IMG/VR virus record: IMGVR_UViG_3300036790_000223
Strand: one strand, 5' to 3'
Length of the DNA: 35,464 bases
From: a virus
Taxonomy: Duplodnaviria; Heunggongvirae; Uroviricota; Caudoviricetes
Shown here: positions 983-34,795 of the stretch, in pieces
Layout of the letters: every line of letters starts with the position of its first letter
Position numbering within the stretch: the first letter of the stretch is position 1
The notes under the pieces: model-generated
What the model was told of the DNA's origin: nothing
The model's database searches: none
Seen by the model: the letters and a program-made list of their open reading frames with translations, nothing else
Program-made: the position numbers and the translations under genes

Positions 983-1012
983 TTGCGCCTCACTGCCATC
1001 AGGTTGTATTGT
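983..1012 (+). promoter_or_regulatory. putative SigA-type promoter for the head operon
   Basis: TTGCGC (983-988), 18 nt, then TATTGT (1007-1012, TAnnnT) in an AT-rich patch of a GC-rich intergenic gap. The predicted start (~1018) coincides with the first base of a long stem. Confidence 0.45.
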
Positions 1013-1017
1013 TTATA

Positions 1018-1102
1018 GAAGTGCCAAGGGGCGCACTATGCCCTCGCACCGCCCACCCGTTCTCTTCAGGGTGCTGGCTCAGCTCCTTCCCCTTCGCACT
1101 TC
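1018..1102 (+). ncRNA. structured 5' leader or small RNA upstream of the protease gene
   Basis: GAAGTGC(1018-1024)-C-AAGGGG(1026-1031) pairs with CCCCTT(1089-1094)-C-GCACTTC(1096-1102). Inner hairpin GCCCACCC(1051-1058)/GGGTG-CT-GGC(1069-1078). Confidence 0.45.
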
Positions 1103-1122
1103 GAGCAAACCTGGAGGAGTCT

Positions 1123-6999: not shown

Positions 7000-7665
7000 G
7001 TGCCTAGCATCATCAACCCTCAGGTCAATGAGACGCAGGCGCCGTACCAGTTCGACAGCGGCGTCATCATGGGCGGAGCCAACGTCGCAGGCGGCGGCTC
7101 GGCGCTTTCCCCGGCTAACGTCGGGCTCAAGGCGTGGGACTTCCCGCTGATCCTGGCTAACGGCACCGGCAGCGCCAAGGCGACCGCGCAGTCGCTGTAC
7201 CTGGCACAGATCAACCTGAACGTCAGCACGGTCATCAGCAACATTTACCTGAACTACCAGGCCGCCGGTACAGCGGTATCCACCACGGCGAGTTTCGCCG
7301 GGCTGTACTACGTCAACAGCACCAGCACGGCAACGCTAGTGGCGTCCACGACCCAGATTGGCAACTCGGCCACCGTGGCGGGGTTCGCCACCTGTCCGCT
7401 CACCGTGCCGTTCACGACGGCGGCCAGTGGGGCGTACTACGTGGGTGTGCTGCTCGGCACCTCCACCACCGTGCCGGTCTTCCGTACCGCCAACGGTGTG
7501 ATTACGGTGACGACCGACGCAACCACGGTAGCCGGGCCGAACGCTGTCGCGACGAACTACCAGTACGCGGTTGGGGGTACGTCCCTGACGGTGCTGCCAA
7601 CCTCGCTCACCCTGTCGTCCAACACCCTGACGGGTGCTTACGCCTTCTGGACTGGTGTGGCGTAG
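7000..7665 (+). CDS. virion-associated beta-sandwich protein (head fibre/decoration-like)
   Basis: GTG start after AAAGGAGGAGG. 221 aa rich in T/A/S/G with a SLYLAQI...FAGLY...LVAST...GAYYVGVL pattern typical of phage structural beta-sandwich domains. Confidence 0.55.
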   Translation: MPSIINPQVNETQAPYQFDSGVIMGGANVAGGGSALSPANVGLKAWDFPLILANGTGSAKATAQSLYLAQINLNVSTVISNIYLNYQAAGTAVSTTASFAGLYYVNSTSTATLVASTTQIGNSATVAGFATCPLTVPFTTAASGAYYVGVLLGTSTTVPVFRTANGVITVTTDATTVAGPNAVATNYQYAVGGTSLTVLPTSLTLSSNTLTGAYAFWTGVA

Positions 7666-7696
7666 CAGGGGTGGTATAACACGCATAGCAACAATG

Positions 7697-7746
7697 GGGC
7701 TCCCGCAGTCTCCCCCGGGAGATTGCGGGAGCCCTTTTCCTTCTTT
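7697..7746 (+). terminator. strong intrinsic terminator between the head genes and the sugar cassette
   Basis: About 17-bp stem GGGCTCCCGCAGTCTCC/GGAGATTGCGGGAGCCC (one G-U pair) followed by TTTTCCTTCTTT. Confidence 0.65.
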
Positions 7747-7768
7747 CGCCGGGGGGCGAACAGCAGCA

Positions 7769-8908
7769 ATGATGATCTTGTGGCACAGCAATGCCCCGTA
7801 CGCCTGTACGGGCTACGGGCAGCAGACTGCCTTGTGGCTGCCCCGGCTGCAGCAGTTGGGGCACGAGGTGGTTTCGTTTGCCCCCTCGGGCCACGCGGGG
7901 GCAGTGCTGAACTGGCAAGGCATCCCGGTCCTGCCTGCCTGGCGGGACGGGTTCGGAAGCGACATCCTGCTCGACCACTACAACAAGACGGGAGCGGACC
8001 TGCTGTTCACGCTGTGTGACAGCTACGCCCTGAACCCGCAGGTAATCGCGAAGTGCAACACCATGCACTGGGTGCCGATTGACTGTGCTCCGATGAACTC
8101 CCGGGAGCAGGCCAGCTTGCGCCATACCGGGGCGATGCCAGTGGCGATGTCTCAGTTCGGCAAGGCCCAGCTGCTGGCGGCTGGGTTCAGCCCGCGCTAC
8201 ATCCCGCACGGGATTGACTGCAGGATCTTCGCTCCGCCGGAGAGCCCCAAGGCTCAGCGTGACGTGGTTGGGGCGTCCGACGAGACGTTCTTGATCGGGC
8301 TCAACGCCTTCAACAAAGACGTCATGCGCAAGAGCTACCCAGAGCAGTTCCGGGCCTTCGCGGTGTTCCGCGAGCGGCACCCGGATTCCAAGCTGCTGGT
8401 GCATGCGGCGGTGGCTGACCCCTCAGCGGTTGACCTCAACGCCCTGGCCCGTGCGTGTGGCATCGAGAAGCACGTCTTCTTCCCTGACCAGTACGCCTAC
8501 GCCTGCGGCATGATGACATCCGAGAACATGGCCAGCTGGTACGGTGCGCTGGACCTGTACACAAACTGCTCCTACGGCGAGGGCTTCGGCATCCCGATCA
8601 TCGAGGCCCAAGCCTGCGGTGTGCCGGTGGTCGTCAGCGACGTGGCCTCGATGAGTGAGCTAGCTGGTCCAGGCTGGAAGGTCCCCACCGAGCCGTTCTG
8701 GGTGCCAGCGCACCAGGGCTGGTGGGGGCAGCCCGCCATGGCTGACATTGCCGATGCCTACGAGGCTGCCTGGCAGCTGCGTGAGGACGGCGGCATGGGC
8801 GCCCTGCGCCAGCAGTGCCGCGAGTTTGCGGTGAACTACGACGCCGACCACGTGCTCACCGAGTACTTTGAGCCAGTGCTGAAAGAGGCTGAAGCGAGCC
8901 TGCCGTAA
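7769..8908 (+). CDS. GT-B glycosyltransferase (GT4-like)
   Basis: Start moved to ATG 7769. N-terminal ILWHSNAP...TGYGQQT, central K..PE motif, and C-terminal EGFGIPIIEAQACGVPVVVSD GT4 signature. Confidence 0.9.
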   Translation: MMILWHSNAPYACTGYGQQTALWLPRLQQLGHEVVSFAPSGHAGAVLNWQGIPVLPAWRDGFGSDILLDHYNKTGADLLFTLCDSYALNPQVIAKCNTMHWVPIDCAPMNSREQASLRHTGAMPVAMSQFGKAQLLAAGFSPRYIPHGIDCRIFAPPESPKAQRDVVGASDETFLIGLNAFNKDVMRKSYPEQFRAFAVFRERHPDSKLLVHAAVADPSAVDLNALARACGIEKHVFFPDQYAYACGMMTSENMASWYGALDLYTNCSYGEGFGIPIIEAQACGVPVVVSDVASMSELAGPGWKVPTEPFWVPAHQGWWGQPAMADIADAYEAAWQLREDGGMGALRQQCREFAVNYDADHVLTEYFEPVLKEAEASLP

Positions 8909-9543
8909 TGGCCCCCCTGGTCACCGTGGTGACCGCCACCTGGGGACGGCCCCGCACCATCACCGATGTGGCGATTCCGTCGCTCGACGTGCAGACCTAC
9001 CCCGACATTCAGCACATCGTGGTCACCGATGGGCGAGACCCCGTGCTGAACGATGTGATGCTGAAGGCTGGCTACACCTGGGGCACGGGTAACCGGATGC
9101 TGGTGAACCTAGGCCGCAACTGGTCCCAGATTCACGGCGACGGTGGGGTCGGGGCTGTTCCGCGCCAGGTCGGCAGCCTGCTGGCGGCGGGTGAATACGT
9201 CTGCTACCTCGACGACGACAACACCTACCTGCCGCATCACATTGCCACCTTTGTGGCGGCGCTGGAGACCACCGGGGCGGACTTCGCCACCAGCCGCTGG
9301 TACCTGGGCGGTACGCACGCTCAGCCTTCGGGCAGCGCACCGCCACGCCGGGGTGAGACCGACACCAACGCCATCATGCACCGGGCCATGATCCTGAAGC
9401 ACGGCGGCTGGCAGCCTGACGGCTACGAGTCAGACGGCGCACTGGTGGAGCGGTGGATCGCGGCCGGGTGCCGCTGGACCTTTGTGGACGAGCCCACTGT
9501 GGTCGTGTGGTCACACCGGATGGGGGCAGCAGATGGGATATGA
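8908..9543 (+). CDS. GT-A glycosyltransferase (GT2-like)
   Basis: LVTVVTATWGRP...IVVTDG...GEYVCYLDDDN (DxD motif)...D. Start overlaps the upstream stop codon. Confidence 0.85.
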   Translation: MAPLVTVVTATWGRPRTITDVAIPSLDVQTYPDIQHIVVTDGRDPVLNDVMLKAGYTWGTGNRMLVNLGRNWSQIHGDGGVGAVPRQVGSLLAAGEYVCYLDDDNTYLPHHIATFVAALETTGADFATSRWYLGGTHAQPSGSAPPRRGETDTNAIMHRAMILKHGGWQPDGYESDGALVERWIAAGCRWTFVDEPTVVVWSHRMGAADGI

Positions 9544-10243
9544 GGGGTACGCCTACGGGCTAGAGCGCGCCACCACTACGGCGGTCGGTTTGCGCCTGCC
9601 TGCTTTCACTGCGGCCGAGCTGGGCGTGGCGGGCGGCCATGGGCTTATCGAGCTGGAAAACATGGCTGCGGAGCAGGAGCACCGGGGCGTCCAGATCACC
9701 GTCGCCGGGTTTGACCGGGCTGTGGGATTGCCCCATTCGAGCGACTACCGTGACCTCGGGTATGTGTGGCGTGGCGGCTTCTTCACCATGAATGAGCCAC
9801 TGCTGCGGGAGCACATGCGGCCCGAGACACAGCTGATGATCGGTGAGATAGAGGCCATCCTCGCTGCCTTCATGGTTGCCGAGCAGCCCCCCATCGGGTT
9901 CTTGGCGTTCGACCTGGACTACTACTCCTCCACCATGAAGGCACTGAACACCCTCGGCATGGCCCCTGTCCAGCGGTTCTTGCCCCGGGTGATGTGCTTC
10001 TTTGACGACACGGTGGGCTTCCACGACGAGTACCACTGTGACTTCGTCGGGGAGCTGGCCGCAATAGCCGAGTTCAACGCTACTCACCGTTACCGCAAGA
10101 TGGCCAAACTGAACGGCCTGCACTTGAAGCCGAGGATTGACGGTGCGGCCTGGGCTGAGGGCATCTATGTGCTGCACCTGTTTGATCACCCTCGCTACAG
10201 CGACTACGTGCTCAATGAGGTTGACAGGCAGCTACCGCTGTGA
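9533..10243 (+). CDS. TylF/MycF-like sugar O-methyltransferase
   Basis: Start moved to ATG 9533. Motifs ELGVAGGHG, GFD...GLP, FDLDYYSST..AL and FFDD match the TylF/NovP class of SAM-dependent sugar O-methyltransferases. Confidence 0.65.
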   Translation: MGYEGYAYGLERATTTAVGLRLPAFTAAELGVAGGHGLIELENMAAEQEHRGVQITVAGFDRAVGLPHSSDYRDLGYVWRGGFFTMNEPLLREHMRPETQLMIGEIEAILAAFMVAEQPPIGFLAFDLDYYSSTMKALNTLGMAPVQRFLPRVMCFFDDTVGFHDEYHCDFVGELAAIAEFNATHRYRKMAKLNGLHLKPRIDGAAWAEGIYVLHLFDHPRYSDYVLNEVDRQLPL

Positions 10244-11088
10244 AGGCGCTGGTGACCGGCAGTGCGGGGTTCATCGGGGGCCATGTCGCTGCAGCTCTGG
10301 AGCAGGCCAGCTGGTCAGTGACCGGAGCAGACATCGAGACCGGTACCGATGTGCGTCGTCTGCCGGTTGCCAGCTACGACCTGGTGGTGCATTGTGCAGC
10401 GGTGGTCGGCGGGCGGCGCGTGGTGGAGCTGGCTCCGCTGGAGCACGCAGCCAACCTGGCCATTGACGCGAGCCTGTTCGAGTGGGCTGCGGTCAGCCAG
10501 CCTGGCCGGGTGGTGTACTTTTCCTCCTCTTGCGCCTACCCGGCGAAGCTCTCCAGCACGCCGGGGCGGCTGCAGGAAGCCGAGATTGACCCCTACAGTC
10601 CACGCTGGCCCGACGAGCTGTACGGGTGGACGAAGCTGACCGGTGAGCTGGTGGCCGGTGTGGCGGCAGACGCTGGCATCCCGGTCAGCATCGTGCGGCC
10701 CTTCAGTGTCTACGGACCAGGGATGAAGGATGGCTTCGCCATCACGTCGTTCACCGACCAGATCCGCCGCAGGGCTGACCCCGTGGAAATCTGGGGACCC
10801 GGCACTCAGGTGCGTGACTTTATTCATGTGCGTGACGTAGCTCGCGCTGTGCTGGCCATGGCGGAGCAAGGCATCGACGGGCCGGTGAACCTGGGGACTG
10901 GGCGGGGCACCTCCCTGGTCAATCTGGTGCATATGATGGGCGATGCCGCCGGGTACGGCCCGGCCGTGTGCACCCAGAAAGGGATGCCTGCAGGGTTGCC
11001 GTGCCTGGTGGCCGACCCATCTTTGCTGCGCTCGTTCTGCGCTCCAGCCGTGAAGCTGGAGGACTACTTTGCTGAGGTGCTGGCGTGA
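10240..11088 (+). CDS. NAD-dependent NDP-sugar epimerase/reductase (GDP-mannose 3,5-epimerase / GDP-fucose synthase-like)
   Basis: GSAGFIG Rossmann motif, HCAAVVGG, SSSCAYP (carrying the Cys used by 3,5-epimerising enzymes) and YGWTK (YxxxK). Confidence 0.85.
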   Translation: MKALVTGSAGFIGGHVAAALEQASWSVTGADIETGTDVRRLPVASYDLVVHCAAVVGGRRVVELAPLEHAANLAIDASLFEWAAVSQPGRVVYFSSSCAYPAKLSSTPGRLQEAEIDPYSPRWPDELYGWTKLTGELVAGVAADAGIPVSIVRPFSVYGPGMKDGFAITSFTDQIRRRADPVEIWGPGTQVRDFIHVRDVARAVLAMAEQGIDGPVNLGTGRGTSLVNLVHMMGDAAGYGPAVCTQKGMPAGLPCLVADPSLLRSFCAPAVKLEDYFAEVLA

Positions 11089-12086
11089 AGGTTTTTGTCT
11101 CTGGGGTTGCCGGATTCATCGGCTCCCAGCTGGCCCGCCACGCCATCACTGAGGGCTGGACCGTTACCGGGATTGACTCCATGCTGTCAGGCGACGAGGC
11201 TAACGTCCCGGCGGAGGCGCGCTGGATGCGCTCCACCTGCCAGGCGGTCACCCACTACCGGCAGTTCCTGAGGGACGCCGACGTGGTGGTGCATTGCGCT
11301 GCCGCCCCCTACGAGGGACTGAGCGTGTTCAGCCCGCAGCTGGTATATGAGCACACGCTGATGTCCACGGTGGCGTTGGTACGGGCGTCTATCGCTGCCG
11401 GGGTGAAGCGCTTTGTGTTCTGCTCCTCGATGTCGCGCTACGGTGCCCAGGGTGTCCCGTTCCGTGAGGAGATGGACACCGCTCCGGTCGATCCCTACGG
11501 CTGCGCTAAGGTAGCCGCTGAAGAGGCCGTGAAGACCATCTGCCGCTTGCACGGGCTGGAGTGGGTCATCGTCGTGCCGCACAACGTGTACGGGCCAGGC
11601 CAGAAATACTGGGACCCCTACCGCAACGTGGCCGCCATCATGATCAACCGGGTGCTGAGCGGGAAGCCACCTATCATCTACGGCGACGGCTACCAGCGGC
11701 GCTGCTTGTCTTACATTGGCGACGTGGTCCCGGCCCTGGCCCAGGCGTGCACCTCCCGCTACGCCCACGGCGAGGTGTTCAACCTTGGCCCATCGGGTGA
11801 CGGTGAGACCATCACCGACCTGGCCACCCTGATCCTCGATGTCACCGGCTCCGATCTGGAGCCGCAGTACATGCCTCCCCGGCCCGCCGAGGTCCACTTC
11901 GCTACGTGCGATTGCTCTAAGTCGGCTGCCATGCTGGGCTACGAGCCCACCTGGGACCTGCGGGACGGGCTGGAGAAGCTGGCAGCCTGGATCGGGGAGC
12001 GGGGTCCCCGGCCGTTTACCTACCACCTGCCCATCGAGTTGCCTACTGATCAGACCCCGCGTACGTGGACTGAGAGGCTGATGTGA
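11085..12086 (+). CDS. NAD-dependent NDP-sugar epimerase/dehydratase (UDP-glucose 4-epimerase-like)
   Basis: GVAGFIG, HCAA, CSSMSRYG, PYGCAK (YxxxK), HNVYGPGQ and GDG.QRR motifs of extended SDRs. Confidence 0.88.
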   Translation: MKVFVSGVAGFIGSQLARHAITEGWTVTGIDSMLSGDEANVPAEARWMRSTCQAVTHYRQFLRDADVVVHCAAAPYEGLSVFSPQLVYEHTLMSTVALVRASIAAGVKRFVFCSSMSRYGAQGVPFREEMDTAPVDPYGCAKVAAEEAVKTICRLHGLEWVIVVPHNVYGPGQKYWDPYRNVAAIMINRVLSGKPPIIYGDGYQRRCLSYIGDVVPALAQACTSRYAHGEVFNLGPSGDGETITDLATLILDVTGSDLEPQYMPPRPAEVHFATCDCSKSAAMLGYEPTWDLRDGLEKLAAWIGERGPRPFTYHLPIELPTDQTPRTWTERLM

Positions 12087-12238
12087 GCGACACCCAGCTC
12101 AATCATGCTGGGAAGTGGGTGCCAGCCATCCCGCTGCCGCTGTACGGGCTGCGTAAGCGCTGCCATTGCGGTGCCAGGTTCTGGACGATGGCGGGTTACG
12201 ATGGCCACTACGCCCTAGCACACATTCTGGAGCTGTGA
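12083..12238 (+). CDS. 51-aa C2H2-type zinc-finger mini-protein (not in ORF track)
   Basis: GTG overlaps the upstream TGA and the stop abuts the next ATG. Translation MSDTQLNHAGKWVPAIPLPLYGLRKRCHCGARFWTMAGYDGHYALAHILEL contains CxC-x10-H-x4-H. Confidence 0.6.
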   Translation: MSDTQLNHAGKWVPAIPLPLYGLRKRCHCGARFWTMAGYDGHYALAHILEL

Positions 12239-12940
12239 ATGGCCAATATGTGCGTGATTGTGCCCACGCGCGAGAGAGCACCCAGCCTGGCCCGGTTTAC
12301 CGCTGCGGCTGGCCGCACCATGAGCGGTGACACTGAGTTGCTGTTCGTCATGGACGACGACGACCCGCTGCTAGATGACAACCGCAAGGCCGTGGGTGAG
12401 TGGGAAGTCATGACCTTGCCCCGGCAGTTCCTGGTGCCGAAGATGAACCACGCTGCCATGCGCAAGGTCACCGACTACCGGGTGCTGATGTTTCTGGGGG
12501 ACGACGTTCTGCCGATCACCCCGGGCTGGGATGCCTCTATCGTGGCCGCTATCGACGCCCTGGGCAGCGGCTACGCCTACCCGAACGACCTGCTGCGGGC
12601 GGACATTCCCGAGCACGTAGCCATCTCCAGCGACATCGTCTCGGCGCTGGGCTGGATGGCGTGCCCCGCGATGGACCACTTCTACATCGACAACGCCTGG
12701 GCTGACCTGGGCCACGGTGCGGGGTGCCTCACCTACTGTGAGGACGTAGTGATGGAGCACCTGCACTGGACACTGGGTAAGTCACCCCGTGACCACGTGA
12801 ACAACATGGCCATAGCCCGAGGTGGCCACGATCAGATCAAGTACCAGGAATGGCGCGACACCCGGCTGGCTGCTGACCTGGAAACCGTACGGGGGGTACG
12901 CGATGGCAAAGAAGCCCGTTCTCAAGGTGCGGTGCCCTAA
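12239..12940 (+). CDS. GT-A glycosyltransferase (GT2-like)
   Basis: CVIVPTRER...FVMDDDD...FLGDD (DxD-type)...HFYID...EHLH pattern. Confidence 0.82.
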   Translation: MANMCVIVPTRERAPSLARFTAAAGRTMSGDTELLFVMDDDDPLLDDNRKAVGEWEVMTLPRQFLVPKMNHAAMRKVTDYRVLMFLGDDVLPITPGWDASIVAAIDALGSGYAYPNDLLRADIPEHVAISSDIVSALGWMACPAMDHFYIDNAWADLGHGAGCLTYCEDVVMEHLHWTLGKSPRDHVNNMAIARGGHDQIKYQEWRDTRLAADLETVRGVRDGKEARSQGAVP

Positions 12941-19976: not shown

Positions 19977-22160
19977 ATGGCTGATCTCGATCCGGTGACC
20001 CAGAAGTTCATCGCTGACGTCTCTGACTACATCCGTCACCTCCAGGAGGCCACCGACGAGACTCGTCACTTTGCCGAGCAGGTCCAGGAGGCCACCCGCG
20101 ACCTGCTGGCTATGGCCGCCGCAGCTGATGTTGCCGCTAAGGAGATCGACAAGCTGCGCGGCAAGATGAACGACGCCAACCTGACCGACGCTAAGACCGC
20201 CGATGAACTGGCCCAGGTCCGCACCCGGCTGGATGAGGTTAAGGGTGCCGGGGACCAGGTGCACGGTTCTACCACCCGCGTCACCGAGGACATCAAGGCG
20301 GCCGGGGACCAAGCCAGCAAGCTGCACGAGAAGCTGAAGACCGCCACAGAGGACATGCGCCACACTTCCGAAGCCACCGACCGCGCCACCGAGCGGTTCA
20401 GCCACTTCCGGGAGATGGTGGGCTCGGTGGTGGAGCGCATCGGCACGATGCACACCGCCATTGTTGGCTTCTTTACCCACACAGACGAGGAGGCTCAGAA
20501 GGCCGAAGGCTCCAGCGGAGTGGGCGGGTTCTTCTCCAACTTTGGCCGTGGCGGTAAGTTCTGGCAGTCCATTGTGGGGTTCGTCGGGGAGTCCGAAGAG
20601 GGCGAAGCCTCACTGTCGGCCTTGACGGGGTCGCTGGGTGCGTTTGGCGCTGGGGCTCTGGTGATAGCTCCGGCCATCATCGGACTGGTCACCTGGGTTG
20701 GTGCGCTCGCTACTGGGTTCCTGGCGGCGGGGGCAGGCATCGGTGCCTTTGCGCTGCTGGCTAAGCCAGCCTTTGAGAAAGTCACCAAGGCCCTAGGTGA
20801 CAACCGCAAAGAGCTGGCCAAGCTGGACCCGGCAGAGCGCGGTGCGGTGCTAGGCATCCGCCATCTCAAGGATGCCTATGAGGCCATGTCCAAGGCGTTT
20901 GAGCCGGACGCCTTCAAGGTCCTCAATGACGGCCTCAAGATCGCCAACGAGCTGCTGCCGCAGATCAAGCCGTTTGCCGATACCGCTGCCACCGCCCTGG
21001 ACAAGGTCCTCAAGCAGCTGGACAAGTTCTTTGCCCCACGGCCGAAGGCTCCCGACCTGCCCCAGGGCATCCTGAAGGGCAACAAGATCGAAGCCCCGCC
21101 GCTGACCGGCTGGCAGGAGTTCGCTAAGTTCCTGCACACGCTGGAGGGGCCGTCGATCCAGGCGATAGCCAGGGGCATCGGCCGGGTAGCCGGAGCAGTG
21201 GCCCAGCTGATGGAGTCCTTCTCCAAAAAGGACGTCATCCACGCCATCAATATCCTGTTCGACATCTTGGCTGGCGTCATCAACCGCACCGCGTACGCCA
21301 TCCGCAACGTGATGAACATGTGGGACGACCTGAGTGCGGCCTTTAAGAACACTAAGCAGTGGATCAGCGACGCCCTCGCCTGGATTAAGAAGCTGGGCTC
21401 TGAATCCAAGCAGCAGATCGAGCAGGCGGCGCACAGCATCGAGCACCAGTGGGACAACCTGTGGTCGTTCACCGTGAAGGAATGGCGGCTGATCGGTGAG
21501 GCTATCGAGGCTGCGTGGCGGTTCATCTCGACCGTGGCCAACGCAGGCATGAACCACGTCGGTGCGATCATGATCAGCTTTGGGCACCGGGTCGAGGCCA
21601 TCTGGGACGCCGCCTGGAACGCCGTGGTCCGGGTTGCCCGGTCGGTCCCGGGCCGGATTGTTGCTGCGCTTGCTGCTTTGCCGGGGATGCTGTTTGGCGC
21701 TGGGGCACGGGCCATCGAGTCCCTGGCCCGGGGCATGCTGTCGGCTATTGGCTCGGTGATCTCTGCTGCCTCGGGCATCGCGTCAAAGATTGCCGGGTTC
21801 TTTGGCCTGTCGCCTGCTAAGTGGGGCGAGCTGTCGGGCTCGGGGGCACCAGAGGTCCGGGGGCGCCACTTTGCGCAGGACATGGCCCGGGGCATCTTGC
21901 AGGGTGCTCCGCAGGTGCACGCGGCGGTCAACTCCCTGGCTGGGGTGATGGGTGGCCGCACCAGCACGCTGGCGCTCGCCACGACCCAGATCGCACCGCA
22001 GCTGCACGTTCAGGTGCCCATTGCGATGGCTCCGGGCATGGGCTCGCTGACCAGCCCCCAGTTCCTGCAGGGGATTCAGCCGGTCGTCCAGGAGGCTATT
22101 CTTCGTTACGTTCAGCTCAACCAGGGCAACGGATTGTTTGCGTACGGGAGGCGCTCGTGA
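19977..22160 (+). CDS. tape measure protein
   Basis: RBS GAGGAGG. 727 aa: Ala-rich helical N-terminus, hydrophobic middle, W/F-periodic repeats, and C-terminal FFGLSPAKWGELSG motif as in actinophage tape measures. Confidence 0.9.
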   Translation: MADLDPVTQKFIADVSDYIRHLQEATDETRHFAEQVQEATRDLLAMAAAADVAAKEIDKLRGKMNDANLTDAKTADELAQVRTRLDEVKGAGDQVHGSTTRVTEDIKAAGDQASKLHEKLKTATEDMRHTSEATDRATERFSHFREMVGSVVERIGTMHTAIVGFFTHTDEEAQKAEGSSGVGGFFSNFGRGGKFWQSIVGFVGESEEGEASLSALTGSLGAFGAGALVIAPAIIGLVTWVGALATGFLAAGAGIGAFALLAKPAFEKVTKALGDNRKELAKLDPAERGAVLGIRHLKDAYEAMSKAFEPDAFKVLNDGLKIANELLPQIKPFADTAATALDKVLKQLDKFFAPRPKAPDLPQGILKGNKIEAPPLTGWQEFAKFLHTLEGPSIQAIARGIGRVAGAVAQLMESFSKKDVIHAINILFDILAGVINRTAYAIRNVMNMWDDLSAAFKNTKQWISDALAWIKKLGSESKQQIEQAAHSIEHQWDNLWSFTVKEWRLIGEAIEAAWRFISTVANAGMNHVGAIMISFGHRVEAIWDAAWNAVVRVARSVPGRIVAALAALPGMLFGAGARAIESLARGMLSAIGSVISAASGIASKIAGFFGLSPAKWGELSGSGAPEVRGRHFAQDMARGILQGAPQVHAAVNSLAGVMGGRTSTLALATTQIAPQLHVQVPIAMAPGMGSLTSPQFLQGIQPVVQEAILRYVQLNQGNGLFAYGRRS

Positions 22161-25100
22161 CCACAGCGATGACGGTTACCGCCACCGCTGGAGGAGCAGG
22201 GGCCACCCCCGGCATGGTGATGCGGGTCATCGTGTTGCGCAACCCGAACGCCTCGCCGCTGGGAGCCACCGCCACCCAGAGCGCAGCTGCAGCGCACGAG
22301 GTGAACCTGACCACCACGGTCACCCGCTCCATCACCCTGGGAGCGTGCACCAACGGCACCAACTCCACCATGGCTGCGGTGGGCCAGACCGCCTTCTACG
22401 ACAACGTGGTCGACAACACCAACATCTGTGCCTACGGCACGTTTACCGGCGGAGTCACCTCCACCACTTCCACCGAGCTGCTGGGGACGAACGGCTCGTT
22501 TCAGGGTGGGTGTGCGGCAGCGGAGTTCAAGCCACTGTCGGGCGACTTTCTGTATCAGGACTCCTCCGCCCCGCCGTCTAAGTCCACCACCAGCGCCACC
22601 GCGCTGACCACGGCCAGCTTCAGCCCGCCTGCGGGGAGCCTGCTGGTGTGCCTGGTGTCGGCTAACGGCTCGTTTGGCAACGCGGTGTCGATGGCCATCA
22701 CCGACAGTCAGTCGCTGAGCTGGACCGCCGCTGCCCAGGCCGACGCGGTTACCATGTGCTACGCCGGGGTGTTCTACGCGGTGGTTCCGGCGGTGGGCAC
22801 CCCCTACGCCCTGGGCCACACCACCTCCACCAGCTCCACCAACCAGGTCTCGCTGACGGTCAGCGCCACCTCCGGGCTGGGCGACGCGATCATTGTCGGC
22901 ATCAGTGAGGCCGTGACCGCCAACGCTATCGCCGGGGTGAACGACAGCCAGGGCAACACCTACCTGCCGGTCGCCACGCAGACCTCCACGGGCGTGCGGG
23001 CGGCTATGTGGGTGGCGCTGAATTGCGCGGTGCTCACCAACGGCACCGGGGTGATCGTGGTCACCTTTGGGGCAGCGGCAGCCACCGCGAAGGGCATCGC
23101 TGCGTTCGGCTGTAAGGGGGTTGCTAACGCAGCTGCCGTGGACGCCATCCCCACGCCTACCACGGGCACCTCCACCTCCCCCTCGATCACCTCAGGGACC
23201 CTGGTGCAGGCACCTGAGGTGGTCATCGCCCTGGAGGCGAACGTCGCGGCGGGCGGTGCCATCACCTGGTCTGGGTCACCCGGGGCGACCATCGCCGGGT
23301 TCCAGGCGGGCAGCGGGCAGTTCACCTCGATGGCGGGCTTCGCGGCGGCAGCGGTCACCTCCACCGCCTACCACGGCACCATCACCTCGTCGGCGTGGGC
23401 GATGGTGATGGTGTCGCTCACCCCGGTGCCCATCGAGACCCAGTTCACCATGGTGCCGACCTACATCTACCCGTTCGGCGCCGGGGCGACCGCCTGGAAC
23501 ACCCTGATTGGTGGCGCTCCTACCACAGGTTTGATGATCGCCAACGTCAACTCTGGACCGGGCGTGATTGTCGACGCCAACTACGCCGTGGTGATCCCCG
23601 CCGCCATCAACGCTGGCATCACGCTGTGTGGTTACGTGTTCACCAGCTTTGGTAACCGGCCCGTCTCCGCTATCGAAGCCGACATCGACACCTGGTTTAC
23701 GCTGTATGGCGTCAGGAGCATCTTCTTTGACGAGGTCAACGGTGCGGCGTCGTTCGACACCTACTACACCACCATTGTGGACTACGTGCACGGGGCCAGT
23801 GCCGGGTCGGTGGTGGTGCTCAACCCGGGTGTGGTGCCCGATGAGACATTCTTCACCAGTGTGATCTCCGCGCAGGACAAGATCATTGTCTGCGAGAACA
23901 CCCAGGCGGGATTCCCCGGTGACATCGCCGCAGCACCGTCGTGGCTGCTGACAACCCCCGCCAGCCAGATCTGCGTCACCATCAACACCTGCTCGTCGCC
24001 GTCCGACATGGTGTCGGACATTAACGCAGCGCGTAACTTCTTTAACGCGCAGTATGTCTACATCACCTACGACATCTTGTACGGGGTGCTGCCTAGCTAC
24101 TACTCCACCGAGGTGGCCTACCTGGCCTCAGGGGCTCCGGCCTTTGGCGGCACCTCCCCCGCAGTCGGGGTGACGCTAGCCGGGCACAACGGCCACGGCA
24201 CTCAGGTCGGGTTCGTGGTGCCGTCGCCTCCGCAGTACCCGCTGCAGGTCGGCGTGACCAACGTAGCCGGGGACTGGATGGTGGCGGTGATTGGCCTCCG
24301 CCAGGATCAGGGCTGGTGGAGCGGTGCCACCACCGGCACGCCCAGCGCGAACAACTACTTCACCCTGTCTACCGGTTCGTCGGTCTACGCCACGATCCAG
24401 GTCGCCCAGACCTTTACCGACGTGCTCAACCCGGGGCAGGTCTTCACGGTGGCCTCCATCGGCCCAGCGGCGGCCGGGCAGGCGAACATCTACTTCACCC
24501 CGGATGCGGGGGTCGCCATGACCAGCGACACCGTGACCCAGACCGGCACCACGGTGACCGTGGCTGACGACGCCCATAACTGGTGGTTCCCGGTCGGGGC
24601 GCCGACCATCACCACCACCGCCGCCGGGGTGACCCGTACTACCATCTGGGCAGCTCCAGCTGCCCGGGCTGCTACCTACGTGTCCGTCGTGCCGACCGAC
24701 TCCTACATGGCCCTCGGCGCGGTGATCTACGACGTCTCGGGGATCTCCCCCTTCGCGGCGGTAGGACCGGTGTTCAGCCTCGGGCAGTCGTCCCCGGCGC
24801 TAAGCCTCAGCGTGCCGCTGGGCGCCCCGCCAGACGGCCAGGCCATCATCATCACCGGGTCCACCTCCGACTCGGTTTCTAACATTCCCACCCTGGCTGA
24901 TGGTGGCTGGCTGAACCAGGTAGCCCAGCTGGCCGACAACGGCGTTGATGCGACCTCCGACCTTGTGGTGTACGGGGCAACCCAGGTCACCACCGGAGCC
25001 ACCAACGCCTCCTGGGCGACTACGGCTGCCGTGGACTGGTCGGGTGCGTCGGTGGCGATCTACGTCTCCGGCTCCAGTCCGGTGATCAGCGGCAACCCTA

Positions 25101-27682
25101 ACTGGCCTTACGTGGCTCATGAGCTAGTGCTGGACACTGGCCCCGGCGTCCCGGCAGACCAGATCACCTGGAGCCAGTTCAATGAGCTGGACTCGGTGCG
25201 CTCCCGGGTGCTGATGACCCAGATGACCCAAGGCAAGCAGTACATGCTGGACCAGCTGCAAACGGGCCAGGGCCAGGTCACCCTGGACGACCCTGACCAG
25301 GCGCTGATTCCGCCGGGCAGCGGGGACTTTGCCGGGATTGACTCCGGCACCCCCTACCGCACCCGCATGATGTGGGCTGGCGGATCTTGGTCGGTGCAGT
25401 GGTCAGGCGACGGGGTGACGGCCTTTCCGCAGCTGGACACCGGAGCCTCGATCCCAGCCGACCCCGGCACTAACTACACCGCCTCGGCGTGGCTGGCGTG
25501 CTCTACGGACTACGGCTCCGGCGTGTATGTGAACCTGCTGTTCTTCAGCTCGTCGTTCGCGTTCCTGGCGGACAACGTGGGCTCCATGGTCACTACCCCG
25601 GTGGCGGGTTTGTCTACCGTGTCCGGCATTGCCCCGCCCACCACCGCATGGTGCGCGGTAGTTATCCAGGCGGGCGGCACCCCGGCCTCGTCGCTGGTCT
25701 TCTACGCTCAGGCGGCCTACCCAGTCCCGCAGCCCAGCCTGGGTGCGGATGCCTACGTGGCGATCCCTTCAGCCGCGTCGTTCACGGCGGAGAACGGGGC
25801 TACGCTCGATGTGCTCAACCCGTGGGCCTACTCGCGGACCGGGCCACCGGTCGCTACGCCGTGGTTCATCCCGCTGGCGGGGTACTTCCAGCGCTGGCCA
25901 CCGAGCTGGGACGCCAACACCTACCGTGGTCAGAGCCAGGCCACCACGGCGGACATCTGGGCCTACGCCAACCGGCAGCTGAAGTCCTCCCTGCGGGAGG
26001 AGCAGCTGACCGACCACCCCTACGCCTACTGGCCCCTGGCCGATGCTGAAGAAGACATCAACCTGCGCTCCACCACCGGAGCGTCCAACTACGCCCCCGG
26101 CAACACCAACGTCCTGAACGTCACCCTGAGCAAGAACGGCAACAACAACGGCCAGGCGGCTCAGGCGTTCGGGCAGAATGCAGACGGGCTGCCCGGGGAC
26201 CAGGTCACCACCATCACCACCAGCTCCCGCACCAGCGCCAGCCCTGGCATGTGGGGGCAGACGTTCAGCTCAGCGGGCAGCTCCAACACCATCGGCTACT
26301 GCCTGCAGGTCCAGGACACCAACTTCCCCCCGATCACCACCGGGGTGACCATCTCCTGCTTCTTCCAGATGACGGCAGCCACCCCACCGGTCGACGGCAC
26401 GATCTTCGGCCTGTGCAACAACACCCAGCGCGTCTTGAAGATGGACCTCGACTCCGCCACCGGGCACCTGTTGCTGGTGTGGTTCGACCAGACTGGTGCA
26501 GGCACCACCGTCACCATCGAAAGCTCGTTTGACCTGCGCAATACCAGCACCCCCAGCCACTGCGCCATCTCCTTTGACCAGAACAGCTACACGGCCTACT
26601 TTGACGGCGGGGCCATCGTGGCCACCGGCACCTTCTCCAGTCCGCTGCCACCGACGTTTGAGTATTTCTCCGTGGGAGGCATAGCGAACCCGGTCGCCAC
26701 TGAGGGGTTCTACGCTGGCTTCTCCGGCCACGCCAGCGTGTATGGCTACATCGTGCCCTCGGTGCGGATCTTGAGCTGGTACTACTCGGGTAAGTTCAAC
26801 TTCGCTGCTGGCGGTAACGGCCAGCAGCCAGACGGCGAATCTGACGACACCCGGGTCTCCCGGCTGCTGGGTTACTCCGGCATCGTAGCCCCGAAGATGA
26901 TCCTGCAGGGGCTGATCAACCCGGTCAACCCGGAGCAGTCCAAGGTTGTCTCCATGCAGGACATCGGTGGCCAGCCTGCCGCGACCGCAGTCACCAACAT
27001 CGCCGCATCAACAGTGCCATCGCTGCTCTACATCTCACCCAACGGCGACATCAACTACTGGCAGAAGTCGTATGTCTACAACCTGCCCATCTCCTGGGTG
27101 CTGGGGGACAACGTCGCGGCGGGGGAGATCCCGTTCGGGAACGACTACTCCCCCGACTACGACCCAGCCCGCGTGGTGAACGACATTGCGCTGACCCAGC
27201 TAGACGACCAGTCGGTCACGGTGCCTGATGACTCCGTGCTGGAGCAGATGAGCCAGAACTCCTACGGCGACCAGACCTACCAGGCCACCGCCTACCTGCA
27301 GGCGGATGCGCTGTCGGCCTATGAGCTGGGACCGACCGTAGCCGACCTGGCAAACTTCATCGCTGAGGTCAACGCGCTGCCCCGGTTGCGGGTGGCGTCG
27401 GTCACGGTGAATGCGGCCAGCCAGCCTGCGGCGTGGCCGTTTGTGGCGGGGGCTTCGGTGGGGGACATGGTGGTGGTCAACCTGCGGATGCCAACCGCCA
27501 GTGCCCAGCTGGTGTCGATCACCGGCCGCATCACCCAGACCAACCGCAACTTCCAGTTCGACGCGACAGCGCTGGTAGCCACGCTGACAGCCCTGGTCGA
27601 CCTGGCCCCGGAGGACAGCGCCCTCACTGTGGATGACCCGATCTTGGGGCAGCTCAACGGCATCAACATCCTGGCCTGGTGA
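22157..27682 (+). CDS. 1841-aa tail-tip/hub protein with spherulin-4 (GH135-like), CBM-like and LamG-like domains
   Basis: GTG 22157 overlaps the tape measure TGA. N-terminal T/A/S-rich beta-sandwich repeats, a spherulin-4 domain at about 23444-24125, a hub-like segment (GKQYMLDQLQTGQGQVTLDD...GYFQRWP...DIWA), a LamG-like insert (PYAYWPLAD...HCAISF...AYFDG), and C-terminal DYD...VNDIAL...S...YG. Confidence 0.82.
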   Translation: MTTAMTVTATAGGAGATPGMVMRVIVLRNPNASPLGATATQSAAAAHEVNLTTTVTRSITLGACTNGTNSTMAAVGQTAFYDNVVDNTNICAYGTFTGGVTSTTSTELLGTNGSFQGGCAAAEFKPLSGDFLYQDSSAPPSKSTTSATALTTASFSPPAGSLLVCLVSANGSFGNAVSMAITDSQSLSWTAAAQADAVTMCYAGVFYAVVPAVGTPYALGHTTSTSSTNQVSLTVSATSGLGDAIIVGISEAVTANAIAGVNDSQGNTYLPVATQTSTGVRAAMWVALNCAVLTNGTGVIVVTFGAAAATAKGIAAFGCKGVANAAAVDAIPTPTTGTSTSPSITSGTLVQAPEVVIALEANVAAGGAITWSGSPGATIAGFQAGSGQFTSMAGFAAAAVTSTAYHGTITSSAWAMVMVSLTPVPIETQFTMVPTYIYPFGAGATAWNTLIGGAPTTGLMIANVNSGPGVIVDANYAVVIPAAINAGITLCGYVFTSFGNRPVSAIEADIDTWFTLYGVRSIFFDEVNGAASFDTYYTTIVDYVHGASAGSVVVLNPGVVPDETFFTSVISAQDKIIVCENTQAGFPGDIAAAPSWLLTTPASQICVTINTCSSPSDMVSDINAARNFFNAQYVYITYDILYGVLPSYYSTEVAYLASGAPAFGGTSPAVGVTLAGHNGHGTQVGFVVPSPPQYPLQVGVTNVAGDWMVAVIGLRQDQGWWSGATTGTPSANNYFTLSTGSSVYATIQVAQTFTDVLNPGQVFTVASIGPAAAGQANIYFTPDAGVAMTSDTVTQTGTTVTVADDAHNWWFPVGAPTITTTAAGVTRTTIWAAPAARAATYVSVVPTDSYMALGAVIYDVSGISPFAAVGPVFSLGQSSPALSLSVPLGAPPDGQAIIITGSTSDSVSNIPTLADGGWLNQVAQLADNGVDATSDLVVYGATQVTTGATNASWATTAAVDWSGASVAIYVSGSSPVISGNPNWPYVAHELVLDTGPGVPADQITWSQFNELDSVRSRVLMTQMTQGKQYMLDQLQTGQGQVTLDDPDQALIPPGSGDFAGIDSGTPYRTRMMWAGGSWSVQWSGDGVTAFPQLDTGASIPADPGTNYTASAWLACSTDYGSGVYVNLLFFSSSFAFLADNVGSMVTTPVAGLSTVSGIAPPTTAWCAVVIQAGGTPASSLVFYAQAAYPVPQPSLGADAYVAIPSAASFTAENGATLDVLNPWAYSRTGPPVATPWFIPLAGYFQRWPPSWDANTYRGQSQATTADIWAYANRQLKSSLREEQLTDHPYAYWPLADAEEDINLRSTTGASNYAPGNTNVLNVTLSKNGNNNGQAAQAFGQNADGLPGDQVTTITTSSRTSASPGMWGQTFSSAGSSNTIGYCLQVQDTNFPPITTGVTISCFFQMTAATPPVDGTIFGLCNNTQRVLKMDLDSATGHLLLVWFDQTGAGTTVTIESSFDLRNTSTPSHCAISFDQNSYTAYFDGGAIVATGTFSSPLPPTFEYFSVGGIANPVATEGFYAGFSGHASVYGYIVPSVRILSWYYSGKFNFAAGGNGQQPDGESDDTRVSRLLGYSGIVAPKMILQGLINPVNPEQSKVVSMQDIGGQPAATAVTNIAASTVPSLLYISPNGDINYWQKSYVYNLPISWVLGDNVAAGEIPFGNDYSPDYDPARVVNDIALTQLDDQSVTVPDDSVLEQMSQNSYGDQTYQATAYLQADALSAYELGPTVADLANFIAEVNALPRLRVASVTVNAASQPAAWPFVAGASVGDMVVVNLRMPTASAQLVSITGRITQTNRNFQFDATALVATLTALVDLAPEDSALTVDDPILGQLNGINILAW

Positions 27683-27691
27683 GGAGAAGCA

Positions 27692-28828
27692 ATGCCGATC
27701 ACGCTGCCGCCGACGCCTTCGACCTGGGCTACGGGCCAGCTTGTCCGCAGCTGGCAACTGACCAACGACGTCAACCAGGCGATAGCCTTTTTGACCTACC
27801 GGCCGGTGGCCTCGCTGTCGAACCAGACCGGTGGATCGTTTGCCAGCGGCGGCGACGACGCAATCACCATGGAAACCGAGTTCTACGACAACTGGAACGG
27901 CCACAACCTGGGCACCGCCAGCCAGTATTTTGCCCAGGTCGCAGGCTGGTACCTGTGCAAACTGTCGGTCGCTTTCGCCTACAACTCCTCCACCGAGGCT
28001 CTGTTCCGGGCCAGCTTTTCCGGCCAGAGCAACGGCTCCAGCTTCGGCACGACGGTCGGCCCCCGGATGGAAAACGGCTCGACCCACATTGCCGTGCCAG
28101 AGACGGTCGACCTGTACAAGATGGTCCAGACCGGAGCCATCGGCGGCAGCGGGGACTTTGTGCAGTGCCAGGCGGCGCAGTTCACCGGGTCCCCGGTCAA
28201 CGTGGAGGACGGTGCTGGCACCTTTCCGTACGCCTCGATCCGGTGGGTGGCGGCGACATCGGGCACGGTCAGCTTGCCGGTGCCGGTCAACCCAACCTGG
28301 CCAGTGCCCGGCGCCCCGGCCAACCCCTACATCACCAGCACCTTTCTGAACGCGAACATCCGCGACACGGTTAAGTTCTTGCTCTATCCGCCGATTTGCC
28401 GTGCGACCTACACCGGCTCGGGCTCGCTGGCCAGCCAGACCTTCCCGGCGGCGACAGCATTGCCGTTCACCGCTACGACCGTGGACAACTACTCCGCGTT
28501 CACTACCGGAGCTTCCGCCGGGTACACCGCTCCGGTCAGCGGCAACTATTTTGTCTACGGGCAGCTCAACATGGGTACCAACGCCAACGGCGGGGCCTAC
28601 GGTGCCGGGCTGGCTGTCAACGGGGGCACCGTGGTCTGGGGTGAGGTGGTCCACCGGCTGTCCGGTGGCGACACCAGCGGCACCGGGGTCAGTGTGCAGC
28701 GCCACGTGCGGCTCAATGCCGGGGACAAGGTGGCGCTGATGGTCACCCAGTCCAGCGGCAGCTCGGTGGCTTACGGTACCGGGCTCGACAACCAGTGCCG
28801 CATGGTCGTCGTTTGGGAGGGCGCCTAA
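27692..28828 (+). CDS. minor tail protein with two tandem linker plus C1q/TNF-like beta-sandwich modules
   Basis: RBS GAGGAG. Repeated P..W..G....LN..[VI]...[IV].FL.Y[RP]P followed by AGWYLC / SGNYFVYGQ...VRLNAGDKV beta patterns. Confidence 0.7.
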   Translation: MPITLPPTPSTWATGQLVRSWQLTNDVNQAIAFLTYRPVASLSNQTGGSFASGGDDAITMETEFYDNWNGHNLGTASQYFAQVAGWYLCKLSVAFAYNSSTEALFRASFSGQSNGSSFGTTVGPRMENGSTHIAVPETVDLYKMVQTGAIGGSGDFVQCQAAQFTGSPVNVEDGAGTFPYASIRWVAATSGTVSLPVPVNPTWPVPGAPANPYITSTFLNANIRDTVKFLLYPPICRATYTGSGSLASQTFPAATALPFTATTVDNYSAFTTGASAGYTAPVSGNYFVYGQLNMGTNANGGAYGAGLAVNGGTVVWGEVVHRLSGGDTSGTGVSVQRHVRLNAGDKVALMVTQSSGSSVAYGTGLDNQCRMVVVWEGA

Positions 28829-33953: not shown

Positions 33954-33954
33954 G

Positions 33955-34028
33955 CTGGCCTGGCGGGACTCGAACCCGCGCCTGCCGCTTAGGAGGCGGC
34001 TGCTCTAATCCATCTGGGCTACAGGCCA
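33955..34028 (-). tRNA. tRNA-Arg (anticodon CCT)
   Basis: TGGCCTG/CAGGCCA acceptor, GCCGC-CTCCTAA-GCGGC anticodon arm, GCGGG-TTCGAGT-CCCGC T arm. CCA not encoded. Confidence 0.92.
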
Positions 34029-34029
34029 G

Positions 34030-34102
34030 TGCCCCCGCCGGGAGTCGGACCCGGTCCTGCAGCTTCGGAGGCTACCGTGCTAATCCGTTGCACTACAGGG
34101 GC
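34030..34102 (-). tRNA. tRNA-Arg (anticodon CCG)
   Basis: GCCCCTG/CGGGGGC acceptor, GTAGC-CTCCGAA-GCTGC anticodon arm, CCGGG-TCCGACT-CCCGG T arm with an atypical T-loop. CCA not encoded. Confidence 0.88.
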
Positions 34103-34186
34103 TTGATCGTGTATGCCTCTAGCTCCAGGGGGGCCAGGTCCATCCTCAGTTTCCTTCCTGCATTCCCTGACGGTACTTGGGCAATA

Positions 34187-34363
34187 CTACGCCCCGGGCG
34201 CGTCCTTAGGTACCTTTCCTTTGCCTTTGCAGGCCGGGCAGCGCTGGTCGTACGTGGCACCCTTGATAACCTTCACGATCCAGCCGGAGCCATTGCACGG
34301 CTTACACTTCACCAGCGGTACCGGTGAGCGGTGCTTGCCTGGCTTCTTCTTTCCGAACGGCAT
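34187..34363 (-). CDS. 58-aa basic DnaJ-type zinc-finger mini-protein
   Basis: ATG after GGGAAAGG. Translation MPFGKKKPGKHRSPVPLVKCKPCNGSGWIVKVIKGATYDQRCPACKGKGKVPKDAPGA has two CxxCxGxG motifs. Confidence 0.78.
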   Translation of the reverse strand: MPFGKKKPGKHRSPVPLVKCKPCNGSGWIVKVIKGATYDQRCPACKGKGKVPKDAPGA

Positions 34364-34478
34364 CCTTTCCCTTCCCTCCGTCACGGCGCTTACCTCGCTT
34401 GCGGTGCTCGGCTAGTCCCTTAATCGTTCCAGCCACTTTGCGACGGTGCTTGCGCTGATCTTTGTGGGACTTGCTCAT
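34302..34478 (-). CDS. 58-aa very basic mini-protein (not in ORF track)
   Basis: ATG after AAAGGAG immediately downstream of tRNA-Tyr. Begins MSKSHKDQRKHRRKVAGTIKGLAEHRKRGKRRDGG. Overlaps the next gene by 62 nt. Confidence 0.42.
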   Translation of the reverse strand: MSKSHKDQRKHRRKVAGTIKGLAEHRKRGKRRDGGKGKDAVRKEEARQAPLTGTAGEV

Positions 34479-34492
34479 GCTTCTCCTTTAGG

Positions 34493-34573
34493 TGGGCCGT
34501 GATGGATTCGAACCACCGCGCCTTACGGTTCCGGGCTACAACCGGATGCATTCGGCCACTCTGCCAACGACCC
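34493..34573 (-). tRNA. tRNA-Tyr (anticodon GTA)
   Basis: GGGTCGT/ACGGCCC acceptor, TCCGG-TTGTAGC-CCGGA anticodon arm, long variable arm, GGTGG-TTCGAAT-CCATC T arm. Confidence 0.92.
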
Positions 34574-34579
34574 ATCGGG

Positions 34580-34653
34580 GGTGAACGGCGGGGATCGAAC
34601 CCGCGACTACACGACCCACAATCGTGCGCTCTGCCAGCTGAGCTACGCCCACC
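34580..34653 (-). tRNA. tRNA-His (anticodon GTG)
   Basis: Encoded G-1:C73 pair, GTGGGCG/CGTTCAC acceptor, CACGA-TTGTGGG-TCGTG anticodon arm, GCGGG-TTCGATC-CCCGC T arm. Confidence 0.92.
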
Positions 34654-34654
34654 A

Positions 34655-34722
34655 TGGGAGAACAGGCTGTCCTCGCCTTGACTAGCCTTTGGTTTGAGGG
34701 GACTCGTTCCCCGCCTGTTCTC
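34655..34722 (-). ncRNA. candidate structured spacer RNA between tRNA-Val and tRNA-His
   Basis: Perfect 10-bp terminal stem GAGAACAGGC/GCCTGTTCTC, internal GGGGA-ACGAG-TCCCC hairpin, followed by CCA on the minus strand. Confidence 0.35.
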
Positions 34723-34723
34723 G

Positions 34724-34795
34724 TGGGCGATAGTGGGATCGAACCACTGACTTCCTCGGTGTGAACGAGGCGCTCTCCCGCTGAGCCAATCGCCC
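34724..34795 (-). tRNA. tRNA-Val (anticodon CAC)
   Basis: GGGCGAT/ATCGCCC acceptor, CCTCG-TTCACAC-CGAGG anticodon arm, AGTGG-TTCGATC-CCACT T arm. Confidence 0.93.

Follow-up and report, generated by a model that had tools for sequence, protein, structure and literature searches.

A Spherulin-4/GH135 glycoside hydrolase domain in a giant tail-module protein of an uncultivated tailed phage

The IMG/VR virus record IMGVR_UViG_3300036790_000223 (hereafter the window, i.e., the whole 35.5-kb stretch of DNA analyzed, with a G+C content of 62–67%) makes up the structural arm of a genome from a tailed phage that has not been cultivated. A giant protein, P0002, is encoded inside its tail morphogenesis module, directly 3′ of the tape measure gene and with overlapping stop and start codons. 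This protein contains a Spherulin-4 domain of glycoside hydrolase family 135 (GH135), the family of the fungal enzyme Sph3. The features of the locus, together with the genomic contexts of the relatives closest to the domain in a phylogenetic tree, are collected in Table 1.

The GH135 domain of P0002

The Spherulin-4 domain is held by a long open reading frame (ORF) at 21821–27682 on the plus strand. Within this frame, the sequence indicates that the GTG at 22157 is most likely the start of P0002: it overlaps the TGA of the tape measure gene as GTGA, and GGGAGG lies six bases upstream. A database copy of the protein, P0003, from a 116,795-bp contig, starts at an ATG that corresponds to codon 20 of P0002. 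However, the GTG is favored because P0042, a related giant tail protein, has a homologous module whose alignment includes residues 2–19. The preliminary description of this DNA, which had a Spherulin-4 domain built into the tail-tip protein, was right that the domain is part of a very large tail-module protein.

PF12138 (Spherulin4) is the sole Pfam family detected in P0002, with an E-value of 4.8e-34 and a score of 118.4 bits (gathering threshold 30.2), and the match spans profile positions 3–237, i.e., 235 of 239. The preliminary description had placed the domain at 23444–24125, nearly identical to the extent of the profile match, and all the motifs that it quoted are present; the interval 23720–23734, given there for SIFFDE, corresponds to IFFDE. 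When all PDB sequences were searched with phmmer, the matches were limited to Sph3 (5C5G and 5D6T, E 6e-14), with which the domain shares ~27% identity, and no model of NCBIfam matched the domain. An AlphaFold2 model, obtained with 37 relatives in the alignment, has a mean predicted local distance difference test (pLDDT) score of 93.4 and contains eight strand-helix units. The top Foldseek matches of this model are again the two Sph3 structures, with an E-value of 4e-13, template modeling (TM) scores of 0.76–0.77, and root-mean-square deviation (rmsd) values of 2.8–3.3, whereas the next matches (E > 4e-5, TM < 0.6) are eight orders of magnitude weaker.

In the phmmer alignment, the IFFDE and NPG motifs and the Glu of IVCE line up with IFFDE, NPG, and VVFE of Sph3, in agreement with the earlier statement that the acidic residues are intact; the similarity greatly exceeds what chance would give. 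The equivalences in Table 1 follow the residue numbers of Aspergillus fumigatus Sph3, which are presumed to carry over to the A. clavatus chain. The putative catalytic residues of Sph3 have been listed (PMC10485009), and its D166A variant is inactive (bioRxiv 10.1101/113696). D525, N556, G558, and E580 of P0002 are invariant in the 37-sequence alignment (37/37). By sequence and model, the segment is a complete GH135/Spherulin-4 domain with its acidic residues intact and, by further analogy with Sph3, it is predicted to be a catalytically competent retaining glycoside hydrolase domain.

Table 1. Features of the locus and genomic context of the clade members of the GH135 domain
Feature	Position	Strand	Basis or context
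Likely major capsid gene	4710–6557		phrog_13692, E 4.5e-60; distant tblastn match annotated ‘major head protein’
Glycan-building cassette (putative)	7634–12940	+	GT4-type glycosyltransferase (7634–8908); GT2 (8908–9543); unassigned 253-residue ORF; two extended short-chain dehydrogenases/reductases (SDRs); glycosyltransferase (12239–12940, phrog_14945)
Tail tape measure protein, 727 residues	19977–22160	+	16 PHROG tape-measure families, best E 7.8e-27; weak Pfam PhageMin_Tail
Giant tail-module protein P0002, 1841 residues	22157–27682	+	GTG start
Module A, residues 1–210, fold unknown	22157–22786	+	39–44% identity to segments beside GH135 in P0042, P0040, P0039, and P0095
Module B, residues 211–425, fold unknown, inserted between module A and GH135	22787–23431	+	36% identity to the P0004 N-terminus (residues 30–236)
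Spherulin-4/GH135 (Sph3-like) (β/α)8 glycoside hydrolase domain, residues 432–654	23450–24118	+	Pfam, PDB sequence match, model, Foldseek
SIFFDE, end of strand 4; Asp-525 and Glu-526, equivalents of Sph3 Asp-166/Glu-167	23717–23734	+	Alignment
Glu-580 codon, IVCE, strand 6; equivalent of Sph3 Glu-222	23894–23896	+	Aligned to Sph3 VVFE
First core module, residues 682–968, β-rich	24200–25060	+	Start of the region common to the ~1150-residue relatives P0005–P0017; model pLDDT 55–80
Carbohydrate-binding module (CBM) 4/9-like β-sandwich, residues ~1058–1216	25328–25804	+	Similarity to P0047; model pLDDT 80–89
Concanavalin/LamG/CBM40-like lectin-fold module, residues ~1276–1553	25982–26815	+	Structure comparison; Laminin_G_3 in homologs
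Most conserved C-terminal region, residues 1554–1841; candidate tail-attachment or hub-like part	26816–27679	+	Low model confidence
Downstream tail-module gene, 378 residues, conserved partner	27692–28828	+	Sole PHROG match is a family without an assigned function
Clade member P0042	119.6-kb contig		After Phage_GPD, base_V, and gp25 genes
Clade member P0047			After base_V, gp25, and Baseplate_J
Clade member P0051			After a 2456-residue tape-measure-sized gene, before a K1-lyase_C tailspike; WhiB nearby
Clade member P0039, 1885 residues	8001–13658 of contig L008		After Phage_tube_2 and a 1141-residue tape-measure-sized gene; before a pectate-lyase-like spike, a holin, and an Rv2525c-like glycosidase
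Clade member P0040			Beside a β-helix protein
Clade members P0045 and P0095			Directly before holins
Clade member P0041	5.4-kb contig		Only other annotated gene weakly matches the phage family Phage_phiTE_241_C

Architecture of P0002 and relatives of the domain

Homologs of the whole protein define a conserved core at residues ~670–1841. Nine relatives of 1088–1168 residues align end to end with this core only, and ~20 further proteins match only the last ~430 residues of P0002, at 38–44% identity. GH135 sits in the ~670-residue N-terminal part (modules A and B and GH135) that most relatives of the core are without; according to these alignments, the enzyme lies in a dispensable, lineage-specific N-terminal extension. 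The closest full-size relative, P0004 (1839 residues, 52% identity over the C-terminal 920 residues), is devoid of a Spherulin4 domain. Module B and the first core module are common to P0004 and P0002, and P0004 has an unrelated insert of ~400 residues elsewhere. The protein-atlas features of module A resemble those of viral hypothetical proteins of about 200 residues. Modules A and B have no detectable similarity to each other, and the idea that they are tandem copies was rejected. The G+C content at third codon positions is 0.82–0.90 across all segments of the gene and 0.83 in the GH135 domain; since the domain equals the rest of the gene in this respect, it is a long-resident part, and a recent horizontal insertion was rejected on composition.

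Two modules of a carbohydrate-binding type were recognized in the core. The CBM4/9-like module shares 39% identity with residues 759–901 of P0047 and gives a weaker match (28% identity, E 1.7e-6) to residues 570–701 of the same protein, a segment that is CBM_4_9 in Pfam (E 4.7e-17); in addition, one homolog of the core has been named a CBM4/9 protein by the Joint Genome Institute. The LamG-like module was superimposed on domain 4 of AbnA with a VIA-align Z-score of 15.8 and an rmsd of 3.2 for 174 residues, Z-scores for CBM40s were ~15, and PF13385 (Laminin_G_3) is found on four homologs of P0002. For the C-terminal ~300 residues, language-model features pointed weakly, at 0.87–0.89 and as leads only, to tail families of the hub type (Sipho_Gp37, Prophage_tail, and Mu gpP). 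The model of the 1172-residue core has a mean pLDDT of 52.6, and its fold matches came from the LamG-like module only. No family was found for the whole P0002 in PHROGs, nor any match for the core in Pfam or for a core profile of 12 sequences among PDB sequences. As for a β-helix or pectate lyase, no Pfam match was obtained in P0002 and none was among the fold matches listed, large parts of the core being modeled with low confidence.

The tail genes, the tape measure gene among them, lie 3′ of the glycan-building cassette. The position directly after the tape measure gene is also seen in two related phages, L001 (which encodes P0004) and L008 (which encodes P0039), and the 375-residue gene that directly follows P0004 in L001 parallels the 378-residue downstream gene of the window. 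The 378-residue protein has no match among PDB sequences, and the two proteins downstream of P0002 gave no meaningful match there. A megablast search with 21000–28000 of the window against 50,697 phage records yielded no match.

An exhaustive HMMER search with the domain returned 3487 cluster representatives at E ≤ 1e-3. Most of them are short (250–450 residues), whereas the nearest relatives (40–47% identical) are large. A FastTree phylogeny of 149 domain copies places the domain of the window in a clade of 10 with a Shimodaira–Hasegawa-like support of 96. The genomic context was looked up for eight of the other nine members, P0043 (247 residues) being left out, and a phage tail or baseplate context was found for 9/10, the window protein included. 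Module A and parts of the core of P0002 recur, in varying order, in P0040, P0039, and P0095, and module A and GH135 are directly adjacent in P0042; therefore, the pair of module A and GH135 behaves like a mobile cassette that is passed between giant tail proteins.

Beyond the clade, a tblastn search of phage records with the domain gave a single match, Rctr41k_46 (31.5% identity), the last tail gene of its GenBank phage. Eight viral proteins in BFVD have the same fold (TM 0.76–0.83), including the 362-residue protein of Rothia phage Spartoi and several metagenomic siphovirus proteins named ‘Spherulation-specific family 4’; in one of the BFVD proteins, a ‘Tip attachment protein J’ domain accompanies the GH135 fold. 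No relatives were found when IMG/VR was scanned with the domain and with the C-terminus of the core, and tblastn of the core (residues 940–1841) against phage records gave no match. A scan of genome contigs with the domain returned nothing, and there is therefore no prophage or host lead.

Several further observations concern the boundaries and the architectures of these proteins. A short conserved junction, ETQF/EAQR followed by a hydrophobic strand, occurs at 23429–23449 of the window, at residue 731 of P0042, and at residue 361 of P0051, and forms the N-terminal boundary of GH135 in these three different tail proteins; it may be a recombination or linker point of the cassette. P0039, from the 103.6-kb contig of L008, has two Spherulin-4 domains of different clades, one in the phage-tail clade and the other outside it, as well as a He_PIG Ig domain; from its sequence, P0039 together with the pectate-lyase-like spike that follows looks like a multi-enzyme tail end. 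Tandem copies, two or three in number, are present in P0038, P0046, and P0101, and in the 959-residue P0044 two Spherulin-4 domains are joined to a Ser/Thr protein kinase domain. The bacterial Spherulin-4 family has unexplored architectures. In addition, L001 (4714–5079, minus strand) and L008 (3558–3785, minus strand) each contain a small Imm_superinfect (superinfection immunity) gene, antisense within the tail operon and separated by a few genes from the tape-measure-sized gene that lies downstream.

Proposed function and alternative explanations

The best reading of the locus is that P0002 is a virion-borne glycan hydrolase acting on a host surface polysaccharide, and we consider it likely. 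It is the most economical reading because nine of the ten clade members are found in phage tail or baseplate modules; the preliminary description had also proposed a virion depolymerase, for a biofilm matrix. The presence of lectin-like modules in the same protein as GH135 counts in its favor as well. P0002 is a predicted structural protein whose translation immediately follows that of the tape measure protein; for this reason, it probably sits at the distal tail end. In this position, the lectin-like modules would anchor the virion to the host surface polysaccharide (a capsule, an extracellular polysaccharide, or a wall-linked glycan) during adsorption, and the GH135 barrel would cleave the polymer through Asp-525/Glu-526 and Glu-580, opening a path to the cell wall. 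By analogy with Sph3, the mechanism would be a retaining one (PMC9860509). The enzyme cassette would be an accessory, shuffled among the giant tail proteins of related phages. The analysis establishes the identity and the fold of the domain, the conservation of its acids, its location in the tail operon, and the phage-tail setting of its clade; from these we infer that P0002 is present in the virion, that its GH135 domain is hydrolytically active, and that it has a role in adsorption.

An actinobacterial host is plausible because of the G+C content of the window and because WhiB and an Rv2525c-like lysin are encoded in related contigs. The substrate may be an α-1,4-linked polymer of the N-acetylgalactosamine/galactosamine (GalNAc/GalN) type, a tentative proposal made by analogy with Sph3 and one that we hold to be doubtful. 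Pel is an α-1,4 GalN/GalNAc polymer (PMC9135694), and pel loci do occur in Gram-positive bacteria, as had been noted in the preliminary description, including actinobacteria (PMC7112168). Its statement that Sph3 cuts Pel is wrong, however: Sph3h binds Pel and cannot disrupt Pel biofilms, whereas PelA cuts both Pel and the fungal polymer galactosaminogalactan (GAG) (bioRxiv 10.1101/113696). Its choice of a Pel-like matrix or fungal GAG as the target was a guess from the Sph3 analogy, and nothing supports a fungal target.

Several points weigh against a virion-borne hydrolase. E526 is not strictly conserved and is kept in 27 of the 37 relatives. The literature on bacterial and phage Spherulin-4 proteins gives no demonstrated hydrolase, only the fungal Sph3 having been characterized. 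Binding without cleavage is possible, as Sph3 can bind a polymer that it leaves uncut. Finally, no Dit, Tal, or hub domain was recognized in the poorly modeled core, and the place of P0002 in the virion is deduced from gene order; the designation ‘tail-tip protein’ used earlier is reasonable on the basis of the gene position.

If binding is all that the barrel does, it would be a non-cutting, lectin-like receptor-binding module for a hexosamine-containing glycan. Indeed, Sph3h binds Pel without disrupting it and the inactive D166A variant still binds GAG (bioRxiv 10.1101/113696), and P0002 already has several binding-type modules. However, the three acids are present, and D525 and E580 are invariant in the relatives aligned, nine phage proteins included; purifying selection on catalytic residues is unexpected for a pure lectin, and we regard this explanation as unlikely. 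Still less likely is an enzyme that acts on a glycan made by the phage itself, i.e., on virion glycans from the cassette at 7634–12940, which it would trim or transglycosylate, or from which it would free the progeny. This idea draws on the GT4, GT2, and two SDR sugar-nucleotide enzymes of the same structural operon, and on Sph3, whose loss abolishes GAG production and for which a transglycosylase role has been proposed (PMC9860509). Yet the SDR pair suggests a 6-deoxyhexose route rather than GalE/UDP-GalNAc, the fusion partner of the domain is a tail protein and not a biosynthetic gene, and the relatives examined have no glycosyltransferase annotated within 8–10 kb of the gene. The SDR at 10240–11088 is nearest to GDP-L-fucose synthase and that at 11085–12086 to 4,6-dehydratases and GalE, all scores being far below the equivalog cut-offs; a GalE-type epimerase as the link to GalNAc was rejected, since the pair resembles a dehydratase and a fucose-synthase-like reductase. 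The sequence of the cassette suggests that it supplies a 6-deoxyhexose for virion glycosylation.

Lower again in probability is a tail-associated enzyme that breaches the wall for DNA injection by attacking the wall proper (a linker or a glycopolymer attached to peptidoglycan) rather than an outer capsule or extracellular polysaccharide. Such a role fits a gene located beside that of the tape measure, and proteins encoded there (Tal-type) often carry wall-degrading domains; the domain, however, lies in a dispensable, shuffled N-terminal extension rather than in the conserved core, and we know of no peptidoglycan activity in GH135. Less probable than each of these is a private glycan economy, in which the tail GH135 would destroy the receptor, or aid escape, on a hexosamine polymer that the phage, which has glycan-building genes in its structural operon, would cause the infected cell to display. 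It may be the phage counterpart of the fungal logic that links GAG synthase, deacetylase, and Sph3, and may serve superinfection exclusion and self-release. The least credible proposal is an auxiliary ‘sporulation’ gene that modulates spore formation of the host, to which we attach almost no probability. It follows the name of the Pfam family and the reading that Hwang et al. (2021) gave to Atacama virus proteins, for which conserved flanking genes were seen around non-homologous ‘SSF’ proteins (PMC8269230). That reading rests on the family name, whereas the sole characterized member of the family is a glycoside hydrolase; moreover, the domain is in frame within a structural tail protein, in a clade of tail proteins, and synteny without homology is what would be expected of swapped tail-protein modules.

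Comparison with known systems, significance, and minor features of the window

Sph3 of Aspergillus (GH135, PF12138, PDB 5C5G and 5D6T) is a retaining endo-α-1,4-N-acetylgalactosaminidase of GAG biosynthesis. The domain of P0002 shares its Pfam family, its (β/α)8 fold (TM 0.76), and its IFFDE, NPG, and strand-6 Glu signatures. Yet Sph3 is a membrane-anchored fungal biosynthetic enzyme of ~250 residues, whereas the domain described here is a module of a predicted phage protein of 1841 residues. The hydrolase domain of PelA and Ega3 (GH114) are, likewise, endo-acting enzymes with a triosephosphate isomerase (TIM)-barrel structure for α-1,4-GalN/GalNAc polymers, but they belong to different families, and neither was among the PDB sequence matches or the 50 Foldseek matches listed.

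Phage depolymerases studied so far are mostly β-helix spikes of phages of Gram-negative bacteria. P0002 resembles depolymerases such as KP34gp57 of a Klebsiella phage and the K1-specific endosialidases in the fusion of an enzyme to a tail protein, in its lectin-like modules, and in modular exchange; β-helix spikes are, moreover, encoded beside the GH135 proteins in relatives of P0002. It differs from them in having a TIM-barrel catalytic module, in being encoded directly after the tape measure gene rather than by a terminal spike gene, and in its host, which is probably a high-GC Gram-positive bacterium. To our knowledge, few depolymerases are known for such hosts.

UniProt automatically labels several phage proteins ‘Spherulation-specific family 4’. 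These proteins (among them those of Siphoviridae sp. ct3CA7 and ct89S11, A0A5K7NK77 of Rothia phage Spartoi, and Virus Rctr41k gp46), with which the Atacama ‘SSF’ proteins of Hwang et al. (2021) are grouped, share the fold of the P0002 domain (TM 0.76–0.83) and are large multi-domain proteins of tailed phages. In contrast, they are only 16–31% identical to the domain of P0002, and their published reading is that of a sporulation auxiliary gene. In a literature search, no paper was found that connects a phage tail enzyme with GH135 or spherulin. The earlier remark, in which no awareness was expressed of a characterized GH135 phage tail enzyme, stands, but viral Spherulin-4 proteins were already on record (PMC8269230; names in BFVD and UniProt). 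Collectively, phage GH135 tail proteins are a recurring variant of tail depolymerases, none of them characterized, rather than a one-off.

This locus adds to the picture a gene placed right behind that of the tape measure, the location of the enzyme in a dispensable N-terminal extension, the shuffling of the cassette of module A and GH135 among giant tail proteins, and a supported phage-tail clade within the family. If the proposed function is correct, the GH135 barrel would be a new catalytic family among virion enzymes and would provide the first functional handle on thousands of uncharacterized bacterial Spherulin-4 proteins. It would also suggest that phages of high-GC soil bacteria use hexosamine-rich surface polymers as their receptors, and would correct the published sporulation-auxiliary reading of viral ‘spherulation’ proteins. 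Sph3 and PelA have already been explored as antibiofilm agents, and phage versions of GH135 with other specificities could serve as reagents.

Elsewhere in the window, a head-module protein of 1221 residues is encoded at 1009–4674 on the plus strand. It contains a weak head-maturation-protease-like region (phrog_80) and, around residues 616–735, zinc-ribbon/DnaJ CXXCXGXG-like motifs. At the other end, five tRNA genes (Arg-CCT, Arg-CCG, Tyr-GTA, His-GTG, and Val-CAC) are clustered at 33954–34795 on the minus strand.

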